Below, piece after piece: positions 22,805-60,860 of a DNA stretch of 64,000 nucleotides. Both the position numbers and the translations under genes were made by a program. Numbering within the stretch: position 1 is the stretch's first letter; each line of letters begins with the position of its first letter. Below the pieces are notes generated by a model. The model saw nothing but the letters and a program-made list of their open reading frames with translations, was not told the origin of the DNA and did no database searches. Origin of the DNA: an uncultured Ferruginibacter sp. (lineage in GTDB: Bacteria; Bacteroidota; Bacteroidia; Chitinophagales; Chitinophagaceae); assembly GCA_964643315.1 (NCBI GenBank), contig CAZXSR010000003.1:88506-152505 (forward strand), read 5' to 3'.

Positions 22805-23470
22805 TTAATCTTTCAGGCACCGAACTGATAATCCATACGCACCTTCTAATGTATTCCTCATTACTCCAGAATATGCGTCATTAGACAATAGAGCGAAAGT
22901 ATAAAAAGTATAATCAGTATTAGCAGATGAACTCCACCAATGCCCTCCATTCCTGATGTCACTAAATAAACCATGTTCATTTCTAAATCCTCCAGGCATA
23001 GCTGAAAATCCACTTGTGTTGCTCCCATTTCCTGAAATTTCCTTACTGCTATATAGCGAACAAGACTGACCATCATACCAACTACTCCACCCAGTTTTTG
23101 TTTTCATTTTTTGGGGCGCATCATTATCCAAGTATTGCTCTAGAATAGTCCAATCATCATCCGTCGGAACGTGCCATCCCTTTGGTGCTAGCCCCCTTGA
23201 GTCATTAATTGCAAACCAATTATAAAGTTTTCCATATTTTTTGCCGTTTTTCAGATTATTTTCATAATAACACCATGCAGGAAGTTTCTTCTGACCAGCA
23301 ATTGCCCACTCCTTAGCAGTTTTTGCTTGTGGTATTGTATCTCCATTTCGAAAGGTTTCTACATCTAAGTTCTTGGTAGCCCACACTTGTGTTCCAATAG
23401 TTACCACTTGTGAAAACCCTTGGTTAAAAAAAACTAACAATATCAAGCAAGAGAAAAAGAACTTTTTCAT
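22805..23470 (-). CDS. FISUMP (Fibrobacter succinogenes major paralogous domain) secreted protein
   Basis: Signal peptide; IGTQVWATKNL, YGKLYNW, PKGWHVPT..W, GFSAMPGG, WWSS, SVRCLKD. Confidence 0.92.
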   Translation of the reverse strand: MKKFFFSCLILLVFFNQGFSQVVTIGTQVWATKNLDVETFRNGDTIPQAKTAKEWAIAGQKKLPAWCYYENNLKNGKKYGKLYNWFAINDSRGLAPKGWHVPTDDDWTILEQYLDNDAPQKMKTKTGWSSWYDGQSCSLYSSKEISGNGSNTSGFSAMPGGFRNEHGLFSDIRNGGHWWSSSANTDYTFYTFALLSNDAYSGVMRNTLEGAYGLSVRCLKD

Positions 23471-34556: not shown

Positions 34557-34661
34557 GCATCAAATGAAATTTTCTTAAAAAAAAGTTAAGTAGGGTAAAA
34601 TAAAGTTTTCCATGGGTCGTTTTTAATGTACCGTATCACAAACGATCTAAAATCCAAACCC

Positions 34662-35690
34662 ATGAAAAACGTAACCACTCTAGTATTGGCATTTACCGCT
34701 ATGTTCGGTACACAAGCCACAAAGTCTCAAGACGTTCATTTCTCCCAAATGTTTGAAACTCCAGTTCTGAGAAATCCTGCGATTTCCGGATTATTCAACG
34801 GTGATGTTCGTGTTCAAATGGTACACCGTTCTCAGTGGAGCACAATCGAATCTGCTTTTCAAACTACATCTGTAAGTGCTGAAATAAAAAAGAAAATCGG
34901 AAACGGTGATGACTTTATCACAATCGGTGGTCAGTTGTTAAATGACAAGGCTGGCTCTGCAGCTTTAACTACCACTCAGGTTTCTCCTACAATTAATTAT
35001 CATAAGTCAGTAAGCGCTGAGAGAAACAGCTACCTGTCTCTTGGTTTCATGGCTGGTGTTGTTCAACGTAAAATTGACAGAAGTAAAATGACTACCAACA
35101 ACCAATTCGACGGAGATCGTTTCAACAGTTCTCTTGCTGATGGTGAAACAAATTTAATTCCTTCATACACTTATTTTGATGGTAGTGTTGGAATGAGCTT
35201 CAGCTCTCAGTTGGGTGAAAACGAGCAGAACAACTTTTATGTTGGTGCAGCTTACCACCACTTCAACAAAGCAAAAAAGAATTCTTTTTATCAATCAATG
35301 GATAATCCTGTTATTTCTAAAAAAGTATTTTCCGGTGGTGTTCACATGGAACTTGCCAACAACTCATCTATCACTGTTCAGTCTGATTACAGCGTTCAAG
35401 GTGCCAGCAAAGAAATCGTTTTGGGAGCTATGTATACCATGAACCTCGACAATAACGAAACTACCAAATACCGTTTTCACTTTGGATCTTATGTAAGATG
35501 GAACGATGCAATCATCCCTGTTGCTAAAATTGAGACTCGTGGTATGTCAATCGCTGCAAGCTATGATGCCAACATTTCTCAATTGAAAAACTATAGCAGA
35601 GGAAACGGTGGATTTGAAATCTCTGTTACTTACCAAAAAGCAAAAAAGGTAAACAGCAGTCTGGACGCTGTAAAATGTCCAAAATTTTAA
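34662..35690 (+). CDS. PorP/SprF family T9SS outer-membrane protein
   Basis: QDVHFSQ...NPAISG, HRSQW, LNDKAG, SYD...GGFEISV; start set at MKNVTT. Confidence 0.92.
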   Translation: MKNVTTLVLAFTAMFGTQATKSQDVHFSQMFETPVLRNPAISGLFNGDVRVQMVHRSQWSTIESAFQTTSVSAEIKKKIGNGDDFITIGGQLLNDKAGSAALTTTQVSPTINYHKSVSAERNSYLSLGFMAGVVQRKIDRSKMTTNNQFDGDRFNSSLADGETNLIPSYTYFDGSVGMSFSSQLGENEQNNFYVGAAYHHFNKAKKNSFYQSMDNPVISKKVFSGGVHMELANNSSITVQSDYSVQGASKEIVLGAMYTMNLDNNETTKYRFHFGSYVRWNDAIIPVAKIETRGMSIAASYDANISQLKNYSRGNGGFEISVTYQKAKKVNSSLDAVKCPKF

Positions 35691-35742
35691 AATGATAAAA
35701 AATATAATTAACATATTCGTTTTTATGGATTGTTTGGATACC

Positions 35743-35775
35743 AACCCACCCCGCTTCTGCGGGGTTCGTTGCTTG
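35743..35775 (+). terminator. Hairpin/terminator after porP/sprF
   Basis: ACCCCGC-TTCT-GCGGGGT stem (35748-35765); U tract weak. Confidence 0.6.
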
Positions 35776-45776: not shown

Positions 45777-46826
45777 TTAAAAATGAGGGCAAGAAAACTC
45801 TCTGGAAGGTTTCTCACCAATATTGTTCAAACTCATGATACTGAGCTCGGATGCACCTGCTCCATTATTAAATGTACGAAGAGGTGAATTTGTGATATCG
45901 TAAGAGAAATTGAGCGCTATTCTACCAAATTGGAGTCCTAAGGAAGGAATCATCGCATCGTTTTTTCTTATAAAAAATCCAGCATGCATAGATGCGTCTT
46001 TTTGCTTACTGATTTGTCGGCGAACTTGTGCGCCTGCTGTCCAGCTTGCTGCGCCTGCCTGAGAGATCGCCAGTGCAGATGGTTGTATGATTGTATTGTT
46101 CCCGATTTTTATAATCGCATTCAGGTACCCTGTATGTTTATGATTAACACGTTCATTTATTGTACTGGAAAAAAAAGTTTCCTTGGGCTTAAGCGCATTT
46201 GCCAAGGAATAACCCGCACTTATGTATATATCTTGACTGGCAAAATAAGAATAATTTAATCCCACCTGAACATCGGGATACGAAATTGAAGTTGTTGAAA
46301 ATACAGAGCCGGTCGGCAAACTTCCATCAAAAAAATGACCGTTGAATTGATCAGGAAAAGTGAGCTTGGAAGGATCAACCGATCTTGTCACCCAGCCCAA
46401 ATTACAACCTGCGCTCAGCAGGCTGCTTTGCCCAAGCATTTGGTGATAAGCCAAAGAGATATATGCTTTGGTAGTACGTAAATTACCGCTTCCTGCAACA
46501 TCGCTCAATAAAAATCCACCAATTCCTGCCCAGGCAAATTCAAATTGGTTCTGTAATATTGCGGCATCCCCATAAGCAGAAAAAGAACGATATGGATTGG
46601 TTATTAAGTTAACAAACTGACGACGATAATTTAATCCAAACCGGTAATCCGCATCCAGAAGAAAACCGGTGTTCGCAGGGTTTGCAAATAATGGTGTATT
46701 ATAGAATTGGGAAAAATGAATATCCTGTGAAGCTCCTGATTTTGCAAGCATTAAAAAACATGAGAGAACAACTGATTTAATGAGTTGCAAACTTAATACG
46801 GGTGATATGTTTGATTTCATCCTCAT
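45777..46826 (-). CDS. PorP/SprF family T9SS outer-membrane protein
   Basis: QDIHFSQFYNTPLFANPANTG, NYRRQ, SYDIT...GASELS; overlaps stop of upstream CHU_C gene. Confidence 0.92.
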   Translation of the reverse strand: MRMKSNISPVLSLQLIKSVVLSCFLMLAKSGASQDIHFSQFYNTPLFANPANTGFLLDADYRFGLNYRRQFVNLITNPYRSFSAYGDAAILQNQFEFAWAGIGGFLLSDVAGSGNLRTTKAYISLAYHQMLGQSSLLSAGCNLGWVTRSVDPSKLTFPDQFNGHFFDGSLPTGSVFSTTSISYPDVQVGLNYSYFASQDIYISAGYSLANALKPKETFFSSTINERVNHKHTGYLNAIIKIGNNTIIQPSALAISQAGAASWTAGAQVRRQISKQKDASMHAGFFIRKNDAMIPSLGLQFGRIALNFSYDITNSPLRTFNNGAGASELSIMSLNNIGEKPSREFSCPHF

Positions 46827-59041: not shown

Positions 59042-59434
59042 CTAATTGTCTTGACTACATTTTTGGCTTTGCACTTCTTTGCTAAATGTCCTAAACATTC
59101 TTTTAAAAAATCTTTTCGATGGCCGGAGGATTATCTCATACTTGAATTTCCATACAATAATTAAAATGAATAACAATAACAAAGAAGAAAGTGACAAACT
59201 TAATCCGATACTATTAGTCCATTCCAACATATAAAATCCAAACGATAAAATTGCCAATAGTAAAAGGATGAATAAAAACAAACTAAAAAGAATCAAGAAA
59301 TATACATGCGCAAAGAATAAAGAAATCCAATCAATAATTTCTGATCTCAATAATTGCGATCTTAATGAAATTATCTCTCGTAAATCCTTCCACACGTCCT
59401 TCCACTCATCCTTAAAACGGGATATCACACTCAT
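59042..59434 (-). CDS. Two-TM membrane protein, phage-holin-like/YqjE-like
   Basis: Two hydrophobic segments; TGATG overlap with ytxH-like gene; family inferred from size and context. Confidence 0.6.
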   Translation of the reverse strand: MSVISRFKDEWKDVWKDLREIISLRSQLLRSEIIDWISLFFAHVYFLILFSLFLFILLLLAILSFGFYMLEWTNSIGLSLSLSSLLLLFILIIVWKFKYEIILRPSKRFFKRMFRTFSKEVQSQKCSQDN

Positions 59435-59670
59435 CAGGATCTTTCATTGATGGCTTCCAGTCTTTCTTTGATTCCTTCTTTGATGGCAGTAATATTATCT
59501 CTACTTTTTTGCCAAGAGTCTTTCACGTTTTCAGAAAAGCGATTTCCACCTTCCCTTATTTTTTTCCTGGTTTCACTTCCCTTATCAGGCGCAAATAACA
59601 CACCTAATATCGTTCCCACTGCAGCACTTCCCAATGCTACCCACAACAATTGTTTTGTTTGCTTTTCCAT
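59434..59670 (-). CDS. YtxH-domain protein
   Basis: GTILGVLFAPDKGSETRKKI signature. Confidence 0.9.
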   Translation of the reverse strand: MEKQTKQLLWVALGSAAVGTILGVLFAPDKGSETRKKIREGGNRFSENVKDSWQKSRDNITAIKEGIKERLEAINERS

Positions 59671-59756
59671 ATATTTTTTTTAGACCAGCAATTTAATTTT
59701 TGAATGCAAAAAATAAAATGACTTAAAGTTGTCTTTAGAGTGACTTTATACAAAAT

Positions 59757-59813
59757 GTAAAGCCGGATAGAAATCCGGCTCGCATCTATTATCCAATATC
59801 CTATGAAAAACCT
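59757..59813 (-). ncRNA. Candidate small RNA with anti-start-codon 5' seed
   Basis: TAGATTTG -7 box (59818-59825), then AGGTTTTTCATAGGATATTGGATAATAGATGCG, then perfect AGCCGGAT-TTCT-ATCCGGCT hairpin and TTTACATTTT. Confidence 0.55.
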
Positions 59814-59897
59814 GATGCAAATCTATTGTGTAAAAAAAGTAATAAATATGATCATTGTAGTACATCAAACTGATTATAATCACTTTTTATTTTTTGG

Positions 59898-60860
59898 CTA
59901 ATTTTTCCTCCTGAAATATTTTCTGAAAAAAACAGATTGTTTTAGGGCATCCAATATATCATTGATCTGTTTTGTTGCCTTATTTGCTTCTTTGACCATC
60001 TCCCTGGCTTCTTCTCTGGCTGATGTATCTCTCCACAAATATGGCAACATTCCATTTCCAGTATCAATTGTTTTTTTGAGGGAAACAGCTATTTGTCTAA
60101 CTGAATCTGTGAGTTGTGTGATATGCTCTCCGGTCGTTTGATATGTATTAAGTAATTTATGAATTCCCTGAGTCATTATGGAATCATAAAGCAAAAATCC
60201 CAACACACCTTTACCCTGATTTATCTGATGTTTCCATTTTCTCATTTCCAGTATCATTATTAATGCCTGCTCAGCAGTTTTTTTTAATGAAATGCTTGAA
60301 TGCTGTAATTGATGAACAATTATGGTGTCATTCAACAATGCCTGCATAAAAGTACTGGTATCTAAAGCCGCAGAAACACGTTGAATGTGAAAGGAAATAT
60401 CCTTAAAATTCAAATTTGTTTTACTGAATGTCTGAAGCATCTCGTCTGTATCCACCGGTTTTTTTGAAAACAGCAATGCTTTATCTTTTGCAGGCATAGC
60501 AGCCCCCCTAAGTGTTTGTATATTGATAATCTTGTTACCTACAAGACCGTCGGTACCGATAGAAACCAATGCGTTTTCGCGTATAATTCCATCGAGGCTT
60601 GCATCCAATCGCATGATTACTTCAATCAAGGTGTCATTGATAACCTCAATATCTTCAACCGTTCCTGCATCTATGCCAGCGAAACGAACATTATTTCCTT
60701 TTTTTAATCCCTGAATATTTTCAAATCTTGCTCGCAAATGAAAACTTCTTCCCATCAGGTGCTTATTTTTTCCAATCATGTACAACATGATAAGCAAAAA
60801 AGAAATACCTACTGTAACGAACAATCCCAACTGTATGTGTTTCAATCCTTCTTTTGCCAT
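59898..60860 (-). CDS. mlaD: MlaD/MCE family protein
   Basis: N-terminal TM, GLKKGNNVRFAGIDAGTV, SIGTDGLVG, helical C-terminus. Confidence 0.9.
   Translation of the reverse strand: MAKEGLKHIQLGLFVTVGISFLLIMLYMIGKNKHLMGRSFHLRARFENIQGLKKGNNVRFAGIDAGTVEDIEVINDTLIEVIMRLDASLDGIIRENALVSIGTDGLVGNKIINIQTLRGAAMPAKDKALLFSKKPVDTDEMLQTFSKTNLNFKDISFHIQRVSAALDTSTFMQALLNDTIIVHQLQHSSISLKKTAEQALIMILEMRKWKHQINQGKGVLGFLLYDSIMTQGIHKLLNTYQTTGEHITQLTDSVRQIAVSLKKTIDTGNGMLPYLWRDTSAREEAREMVKEANKATKQINDILDALKQSVFFRKYFRRKN

Follow-up and report, generated by a model that had tools for sequence, protein, structure and literature searches.

Does the gap between an mlaD-like and a ytxH-like gene on the minus strand of a 64-kb stretch of uncultured Ferruginibacter sp. 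DNA (hereafter the window) hold a regulatory RNA gene of its own, and which messages would such an RNA recognize? A first-pass annotation of this DNA had proposed a self-contained small RNA (sRNA) gene with its own promoter-like box and terminator, whose single-stranded 5' end would serve as a seed against start codons. Comparative analysis bore out both proposals. The unit is a real and extremely conserved sRNA gene of a large multicopy family in the Chitinophagales, which is apparently undescribed; literature searches on sRNA families of the Chitinophagaceae, on FopS together with Chitinophaga and on sRNA control of the type IX secretion system (T9SS) returned nothing relevant, and Rfp18 of Flavobacterium psychrophilum proved to be unrelated. 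The best explanation, which is given a probability of roughly 0.72, is an independently transcribed, trans-acting RNA of ~63 nt that is a paralog within this family, a sister to the FopS RNAs and the R1 part of GibS from Bacteroidales, and that would block initiation on its target mRNAs.

On its minus strand, the spacer between mlaD and ytxH contains, as had been described, a single unit made up of a TAGATTTG box, then a 5' AGGUUUUUCAUAGGAUAUUGGAUAA stretch, and finally a hairpin with a weak U tail. The sequence AGGUUUUUCAUAGGAUAUUGGAUAAUAGAUGCG begins at 59813, where transcription would start, after the box (59825..59818) and CATC. The stem AGCCGGAU/AUCCGGCU (59780-59773 / 59768-59761) is a perfect 8-bp helix with a UUCU loop, or 9 bp with the closing G-U pair, and is followed by the tail UUACAUUUUG, given also as UUUACAUUUUG. 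Folded alone, the RNA reaches -18.7 kcal/mol (z = -2.6) with a dominant hairpin and an essentially open 5' part. The size and the tail had to be corrected: the unit spans ~63 nt and not 57 nt, and the U tract of the window copy is interrupted (UUUACAUUUU) and weaker than in most relatives. The single motifs are no more frequent than expected by chance (GTTTTTCAT occurs 4 times in the window with 2.1 expected, TAnnTTTG 86 times with 79 expected), and the significance of the unit comes from its conservation.

This conservation is evident at the locus itself. Relatives of the window MlaD on metagenome contigs are 73, 71, 65, 51 and 50% identical, and beyond these contigs Chitinophagaceae relatives reach only ~40% identity. 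The order mlaF-mlaD-(~215 nt)-ytxH is retained in four metagenome contigs (L006, L007, L008 and L010; MlaD 51-73% identical). Alignment of the spacers from these four loci and the window revealed a block of ~70 nt, spanning ATTTGC to ...GGCTTTACATTTT, that is 100% identical in all five, even where MlaD is only 51% identical, and that is flanked by diverged sequence. The box in these syntenic relatives reads TAGATTTG, TACATTTG or GATATTTG. Copies of the sRNA also lie downstream of mlaD in two Chitinophagaceae loci with MlaD proteins of 36-37% identity (L004 and L005).

Beyond this synteny, the exact 23-mer GTTTTTCATAGGATATTGGATAA was found in 70 loci of species-representative genomes, all from Chitinophagaceae or Chitinophagales and including Ferruginibacter, Flavihumibacter, Terrimonas, Flavisolibacter and Niastella. 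These loci correspond to 48 Chitinophagales assemblies (counted by hand from accession prefixes), often with several and at most four loci (contigs) in one assembly. Three cultured strains are among the carriers of the family, Terrimonas ginsenosidimutans NA20 (L031), Flavihumibacter profundi KCTC 62290 (L047) and Foetidibacter luteolus YG09 (L214). A looser pattern raised the collection to 157 copies in Chitinophagales, all laid out alike, with an invariant 5' domain and, after it, a linker (A-rich or specific to the subfamily), a hairpin and a U tract. The first 5' module, GUUUUUCAU, is invariant in all 157 copies and in FopS. In 73 distinct copies, 91% of the hairpin cells are paired and nine of the ten pairs show compensatory changes; none of 500 shuffles reached the observed covariation score, and register-shifted controls collapsed. 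RNAalifold also found the terminator helix supported by covariation, its only other predicted pairing being a weak 4-bp helix in the 5' domain, whose invariant pairs show no covariation. The hairpin top GGAUUUCUAUCC is conserved across the family as well.

A covariance model, R1, was built from the 73 copies. It detects one copy in the window (74.6 bits, E=5e-17; next best match 16.2 bits) and 93 copies above 62 bits in the fetched loci, of which the 92 besides the window copy score 62.6-91 bits. The window copy is itself among the 73 sequences used for building, which makes its own score a partly circular criterion; independent copies, found only afterwards, reached 70-79 bits. All features that define the family are present in the window copy: 5' GGUUUUUCAUAGGAUAUUGGAU in its invariant form, the linker, the GAUUUCUAUC-topped hairpin and the U tract. 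A second member had been suspected at 35718-35775. This suspicion was not upheld, as R1 assigns the site 8.7 bits (E=2.1) and neither a box upstream nor a CAU is present; there is some 5' resemblance (GTTTTT-ATGGAT..TTGGATA), yet the site is just a plain terminator. Tandem arrays of two to three copies exist elsewhere in the family, with an upstream element for each copy, and locus L080 holds eight copies within 8 kb. This locus belongs to a Flavihumibacter metagenome-assembled genome (JBGSYC010000138.1, 422-7201), and a near-identical TGGCAT-type region precedes each of the eight copies. They flank an opposite-strand open reading frame (ORF) of 800 aa with repeated domains, whose C-terminus, judged by eye only, resembles a type IX secretion sorting domain.

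At gathering thresholds, Rfam yielded no match in the whole window. In E-value mode, one Rfam family, RF04319 (BTncRNA_FopS), fits the proposed unit end to end, with model positions 1-71 aligned on 59750-59813 at 15.6 bits versus a gathering threshold of 56. The earlier pointer to paralogous families such as FopS was therefore a good one: the alignment lies on exactly the coordinates of the unit, and the 5' domains are near-identical (GU-GUUUUUCAU-GG-UAUUAGAU vs AG-GUUUUUCAUAGGAUAUUGGAU). The FopS consensus begins GUGUUUUUCAUgGUAUUAGAU and the window RNA begins AGGUUUUUCAUAGGAUAUUGGAU. Within the unpaired FopS-type seed R1/R1' (GUGUUUUUCAUGGUAUUAGAU), GUUUUUCAU agrees exactly with the 5' R1 portion of the Rfam consensus, and the rest matches bar two 1-nt indels and one substitution. 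TTTG-N6-GUUUUU of the window copy has the spacing seen in FopS genes. A pattern search that admitted the two 1-nt indels and R at one position gave, among the matches listed, only two common forms, one of 19 nt in Bacteroidales and one of 21 nt in Chitinophagales. Carriers of the 19-nt form among these listed matches were Bacteroides, Prevotellaceae, Muribaculaceae, Paludibacteraceae, Dysgonamonadaceae and Porphyromonadaceae; the organism-labelled 21-nt copies all bore the labels Chitinophagaceae, Chitinophagales or the broader Sphingobacteriales/Bacteroidota. A joint alignment of FopS and Chitinophagales copies, which includes two intermediate forms from viral contigs (L352 and L395), retains GTTTTTCAT, G, TATT and GAT as invariant columns. 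Common descent with FopS is likely, with ~20 nt as its basis.

FopS was reported to be conserved within the Bacteroidaceae and to be transcribed from canonical promoters (PMC11697453). All eight Bacteroidales copies scored in one run pass RF04319 with 71-81 bits, and no copy in ten Chitinophagales loci does. Passing copies are found in Paludibacter, Dysgonamonadaceae, Porphyromonadaceae, Prevotellaceae (including Leyella stercorea) and Muribaculum (L161, L163, L172, L179, L198 and L218), and the range of FopS is hence wider than the Bacteroidaceae. The FopS-type 19-mer was also seen on more than 120 viral contigs (among the matches listed, L280-L399; IMG/VR), where it mostly lacks a TTTG box and is joined to another hairpin (ATCCCCGCCG...CGCGGGGAT). 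These may be sRNAs of phages, or else sequences complementary to the starts of phage genes. The Chitinophagales form is present on two unlabelled viral contigs, L293 and L369.

FopS and the Chitinophagales family are alike in their size of ~60-70 nt, in an unpaired 5' seed followed by a single terminator hairpin, in the spacing of the -7 box (window copy), in the complementarity of the seed to start-codon regions of outer-membrane protein mRNAs and in being multicopy (12-15 FopS copies per Bacteroides genome; the window holds one copy of the family). They differ in two 1-nt insertions and one A-to-G change in the 5' domain of the family, in the linker and the hairpin (loop region GGAUUUCUAUCC in the family vs GUCGUGAGAC in FopS) and in their host class (Chitinophagia for the family, Bacteroidia for FopS). 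All FopS genes have canonical primary-sigma (sigma ABfr) promoters, whereas the family has at least four upstream architectures at the motif level, and the predicted target is the T9SS gene porP/sprF instead of susC-like genes of polysaccharide utilization loci. GibS of B. thetaiotaomicron has the R1 seed in common with the family but, compared by description, is a single-copy RNA of ~145 nt with a second seed (R2) and a non-canonical stationary-phase promoter, versus 63 nt and multiple copies. In enterobacteria, the short sigmaE-dependent RNAs MicA, RybB and MicL use a 5' seed to repress the synthesis of outer-membrane proteins; they depend on Hfq and target mRNAs that contain a Shine-Dalgarno sequence. 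Some paralogs of the family likewise have a motif of extracytoplasmic function (ECF) type (TGCAAC-N16-CGTC; motif only), but there is no sequence relationship to these RNAs.

In Bacteroides, the extended R1' seed of FopS pairs beside the start codon of susC-like mRNAs, as demonstrated by in-line probing and by electrophoretic mobility shift assays with compensatory mutants, and FopS-10 blocks in vitro translation, a block that is relieved by RbpB, a protein with an RNA recognition motif (RRM) (PMC11697453). GibS uses the same R1 region and pairs across the start codons of its targets (PMC7366714). Predicted FopS targets are enriched for outer-membrane proteins (PMC11697453). The locus had been presented as the best candidate for an undescribed system, which does not hold for its mechanism, as start-codon seed pairing is already known and has been demonstrated for FopS and GibS (PMC11697453, PMC7366714). 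What appears to be new is the Chitinophagales branch, its at least four upstream promoter architectures and its conserved predicted target porP/sprF.

The single-stranded 5' end has the properties of the proposed anti-start-codon seed, with GUUUUUCAU being complementary to AUGAAAAAC. It was also correctly noted that TATGAAAAA overlaps the starts at 23470, 44286 and 62742 and that pairing is far more extensive at the porP/sprF start (34662). With nucleotides 1-33 of the sRNA, this site forms a predicted duplex of -23.4 kcal/mol over mRNA positions -20 to +11, in which AUGAAAAAC lies opposite GUUUUUCAU, CC opposite GG and AUCCAA opposite UUGGAU. It ranks about sixth among all 60-nt windows on both strands and is the best one that covers an AUG, and porP is the only real gene start in the window with both modules. 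The gene encodes a PorP_SprF protein (PF11751), its start is confirmed by homologs of 342 aa, and the gene preceding it encodes a protein of 1630 aa that combines 14 PKD domains with a CHU_C domain for type IX secretion. In relatives with PorP proteins of 81-89% identity, the site AAAUCCAAACCCAUGAAAAAC is invariant.

The prediction was extended to 74 porP orthologs from Chitinophagales genomes, which were compared with 369 control genes from sRNA-bearing loci. The 5' untranslated regions (UTRs) of the orthologs contain (U)AUCCAA(A) between one and three times, shortly before AUGAAA, and the motif-bearing UTRs are otherwise diverse. ATCCAA occurs within -45..-1 in 45% of the orthologs vs 1% of the controls. 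The mean duplex energy with the invariant 25 nt is -14.7 kcal/mol for porP orthologs vs -9.4 kcal/mol for controls (Mann-Whitney p=7.5e-23), and amounts to -9.9 kcal/mol for controls starting with MK and to -10.9 kcal/mol for the reversed seed. The first-pass annotation had envisaged a broad damping of exported proteins. Its link to signal peptides stands, since ATGAAAAA starts were found in 29 of 157 signal-peptide-like genes vs 16 of 516 other genes and are thus about six times commoner in the former. Pairing of the full seed, in contrast, is only marginally better for the signal-peptide-like genes (p=0.03), and the 51 gene starts of the window have no advantage over random sites in pairing (-9.0 vs -8.9 kcal/mol). 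The evidence points to a two-module seed with porP/sprF as a specific conserved target over broad damping.

Other pairings were considered and discarded. The strongest duplex at a nominal gene start (-24.3 kcal/mol) lies at 45820 (window 45786-45834, minus strand) and is probably due to chance or a mis-called start, as the TTG start is uncertain, the product is a cytoplasmic FAD-linked oxidase and the AUG/seed geometry is missing; the oxidase gene overlaps an upstream ORF at this start. Pairing of the subfamily linker (UAGAUGCG) with CGAUCUA of porP is not conserved in the 81% relatives and hence is not claimed. The porP leader has features of its own. A 12-mer that mimics the sRNA seed, GTTTTCCATGGG, is located at 34605-34616 on the plus strand, ~55 nt upstream of the porP/sprF AUG. 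It reads GTTTTTCATAGGG at the same relative position in the 81% relatives (L400 and L401), is absent in relatives of 64-65% identity and, according to fold predictions (z = -2.2 and -3.8), would pair with CCCAUGAAAAAC in cis; it may form a cis anti-start stem or be a chance occurrence in one small clade. In most porP/sprF orthologs, TCGTTTAATA...ACCGTA is conserved upstream of the AUCCAA-containing UTR (L081-L160, about -45 to -30; window 34617-34635) and may constitute the porP promoter, with a -10-like CGTT.

The proposed mechanism builds on an RNA of three parts, namely an unpaired invariant 5' domain (A)GGUUUUUCAUAGGAUAUUGGAU, the A-rich or subfamily-specific linker and a covarying hairpin of the intrinsic-terminator type. 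Module 1 (GUUUUUCAU) would cover the AUG and the next codons AAA and AAC, and module 2 (UUGGAUA) would cover the (U)AUCCAA motifs in a 5' UTR that is devoid of a Shine-Dalgarno sequence. By analogy with FopS-10 on susC mRNA, both modules together would occlude the ribosome and repress translation. The best conserved target would be the outer-membrane gene porP/sprF of type IX secretion beside its PKD-repeat cargo gene. The window copy would be transcribed from a primary-sigma-type box and would also provide the sole terminator downstream of the mla operon.

Table. Positions of the sRNA unit, its predicted target and the neighbouring features in the window
Feature	Position	Strand	Remarks
sRNA gene AGGUUUUUCAUAGGAUAUUGGAUAAUAGAUGCGAGCCGGAUUUCUAUCCGGCUUUACAUUUUG, ~63 nt	59751..59813	-	family-model score and conservation
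Seed module 1, GUUUUUCAU	59803..59811	-	complement of AUGAAAAAC (start codon, Lys and Asn codons)
Seed module 2, GGAUAUUGGAUAA	59789..59801	-	UUGGAU(A) complements (U)AUCCAA; invariant across the family
Terminator hairpin, GAGCCGGAU-UUCU-AUCCGGCUU	59760..59781	-	covariation and terminator scan
Interrupted U tract downstream of hairpin	59751-59759	-	
-7 box TAGATTTG, Bacteroidota primary-sigma type	59818..59825	-	4 nt (CATC) before the putative +1 at 59813
ATGATCAT, RTCAT element at about -35 to -42	59848..59855	-	common to the mlaD-downstream promoter subfamily
porP/sprF initiation site	34642..34672	+	AUCCAA 34652-34657, AUGAAAAAC 34662-34670
mlaD-like gene	59898..60860	-	PF02470; sRNA 84 nt downstream
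ytxH-like gene	59434..59670	-	PF12732; 80 nt downstream of sRNA, same strand
ytxH promoter-like pair GTCAT(59722-59718)-N22-TAAATTGC(59695-59688)	59688-59722	-	kept in 5/5 syntenic loci

Several other explanations for the unit had to be weighed. The hairpin is the sole terminator-like site between mlaD and ytxH and therefore probably ends transcripts of the mla operon too. With a same-strand ytxH close by downstream and a weak U tract, the unit could be punctuation only, in which the hairpin closes the mla operon and the box serves ytxH, with no discrete functional RNA as a product. Little credence is given to this explanation. A terminator and a promoter would not account for 63 nt without any change where MlaD is down to 51% identity; the 157 copies of the unit are found in contexts unrelated to one another, with tandem arrays and convergent neighbours among them; and past the hairpin, ytxH is preceded by a conserved promoter-like pair of its own. 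The same layout of promoter, structured RNA, terminator and same-strand gene, together with the weak tail in the window clade, is what would be expected of a cis-acting 5' leader or attenuator of the downstream gene, here ytxH. A leader is nevertheless quite improbable: of 82 downstream genes across the family, 43 share the strand of the unit and 39 lie on the opposite one, and these genes belong to varying families. Tandem arrays of complete units exist, and RNAalifold shows no conserved alternative antiterminator pairing. The unrelated neighbours include an M16 peptidase, Mpo1-like/QueA, thioredoxin-like and Ku proteins, receiver-only response regulators, an iron permease and OmpA.

A short palindromic sequence that is multicopy and sometimes tandem, with related sequences on more than 120 viral contigs among the matches listed, also recalls repetitive or mobile DNA, either of the repetitive extragenic palindrome (REP) or miniature inverted-repeat transposable element type or spread by phages, without any function as RNA. 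This would be very surprising, given that the unpaired part is invariant and the palindrome varies with compensation, the opposite of REP, that copies occupy orthologous positions across species (for example downstream of mlaD or of an M16 peptidase gene) and that each copy lies at a fixed distance from its promoter-like element. The start of a plus-strand small protein gene (59803..59901, 32 aa, MKNLMQ...) deserves almost no weight; the ORF is present and its ATG complements the CAU of the seed, but it enters the region upstream of the sRNA, which differs wholly between copies and promoter classes, and consequently there is no conserved peptide. Somewhat more plausible, yet still unlikely, is an RNA whose 5' domain binds an RRM-type protein and titrates it rather than pairing with mRNAs. 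All 23 nt of this domain are invariant, which exceeds typical seed needs, the hairpin top GGAUUUCUAUCC is likewise conserved, and crosslinking and immunoprecipitation places RbpB peaks in the 5' portion of FopS RNAs (PMC11697453). Against such a decoy, both invariant modules complement a conserved initiation region, and pairing and repression have been demonstrated in Bacteroides, where RbpB antagonises and does not replace them (PMC11697453).

A trans-acting seed RNA thus remains the preferred explanation, and a number of points weigh against it. Transcription, the 5' end and the discrete size of the RNA are deduced from sequence, and the TAnnTTTG box alone occurs at chance frequency. Owing to the interrupted U tract (UUUACAUUUU), the terminator may let transcription pass, and ytxH could be transcribed together with the RNA. 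The window copy stays below the Rfam FopS threshold (15.6 vs 56 bits), and FopS copies score only 11-16 bits on R1 (Chitinophagales copies 70-79). It is on account of this clean split between RF04319 and R1 scores and of the shared 5' domain that the family is filed as a sister of FopS and not as a curated member; the shared ~20 nt could in principle also reflect convergence on the same target sequence. With regard to the target, duplex energy alone is not decisive, as five other sites in the window equal or exceed porP, and the p-value obtained for the porP orthologs overstates independence because these genes are phylogenetically related. The AUCCAA repeats could serve another function, and a bound protein, not base pairing, may be what keeps the full 23 nt invariant.

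At least four recurrent upstream architectures were found in front of the one RNA body, all sigma factor assignments being at the level of motifs. The window type (18-20 copies) combines RTCAT at about -35 with TAnnTTTG and is mostly located downstream of mlaD. TTGTRTAA plus TTACTTTG precedes ~24 copies, several of which lie downstream of genes for long proteins (685-974 aa), the one checked being an M16 peptidase. TGGCAY at a fixed -27 precedes 29 copies in a sigma54-like position; an assignment to sigma54 was dropped since the -24-like box is well placed but the -12 GC is mostly absent, and the group was kept as a motif class. The fourth architecture, TTAACA-N6-TGCAAC-N16-CGTC (at least 12 copies), is ECF-like, as its TGCAAC-N16-CGTC presumably represents the AAC/CGT signature of ECF sigma factors. 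Three promoter classes are present in one assembly, JBDSAA (L029, L062, L076 and L077). An inverted repeat, AATACC-N6-8-GGTATT, at about -55 to -30 of the sRNA in seven loci (L180, L182, L210, L212, L239, L267 and L271) resembles the operator of a dimeric regulator, and in L171 and L175 CCTATAGG takes its place. With different promoter types in front of one RNA body, several signals probably converge on one regulon through this family.

FopS has been reported as a feature of the Bacteroidaceae that is tied to gut glycan use (PMC11697453). A sister family with the FopS seed is abundant in free-living Chitinophagales of soil and freshwater, which suggests that start-codon-masking sRNAs are old and general in a phylum without Shine-Dalgarno initiation. 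A wider reading is put forward tentatively and is held to be possible rather than probable: the FopS seed would predate the split of Bacteroidia and Chitinophagia, and a regulon with many promoters and inputs (primary sigma, ECF-like, sigma54-like TGGCAY and operator-flanked) would control porP/sprF, and probably other exported proteins, through the bipartite seed. If true, this regulon would be functionally equivalent to the sigmaE-sRNA envelope circuit, in a phylum devoid of both Hfq and Shine-Dalgarno initiation. The sRNA and porP/sprF of the T9SS form a concrete testable pair, and literature searches found no RNA-level regulator of this secretion system. One RNA body under at least four promoter types also offers a natural system in which to study signal integration by paralogous sRNAs. 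The Rfam FopS model is too narrow to detect the Chitinophagales branch.

In the neighbourhood of the window copy, mlaF and mlaE are situated farther upstream of the mlaD-like gene. The promoter-like pair of ytxH, GTCAT-N22-TAAATTGC, is built like ATCAT-N22-TAGATTTGC of the sRNA, and this shared architecture hints at a co-regulation of the sRNA and ytxH.

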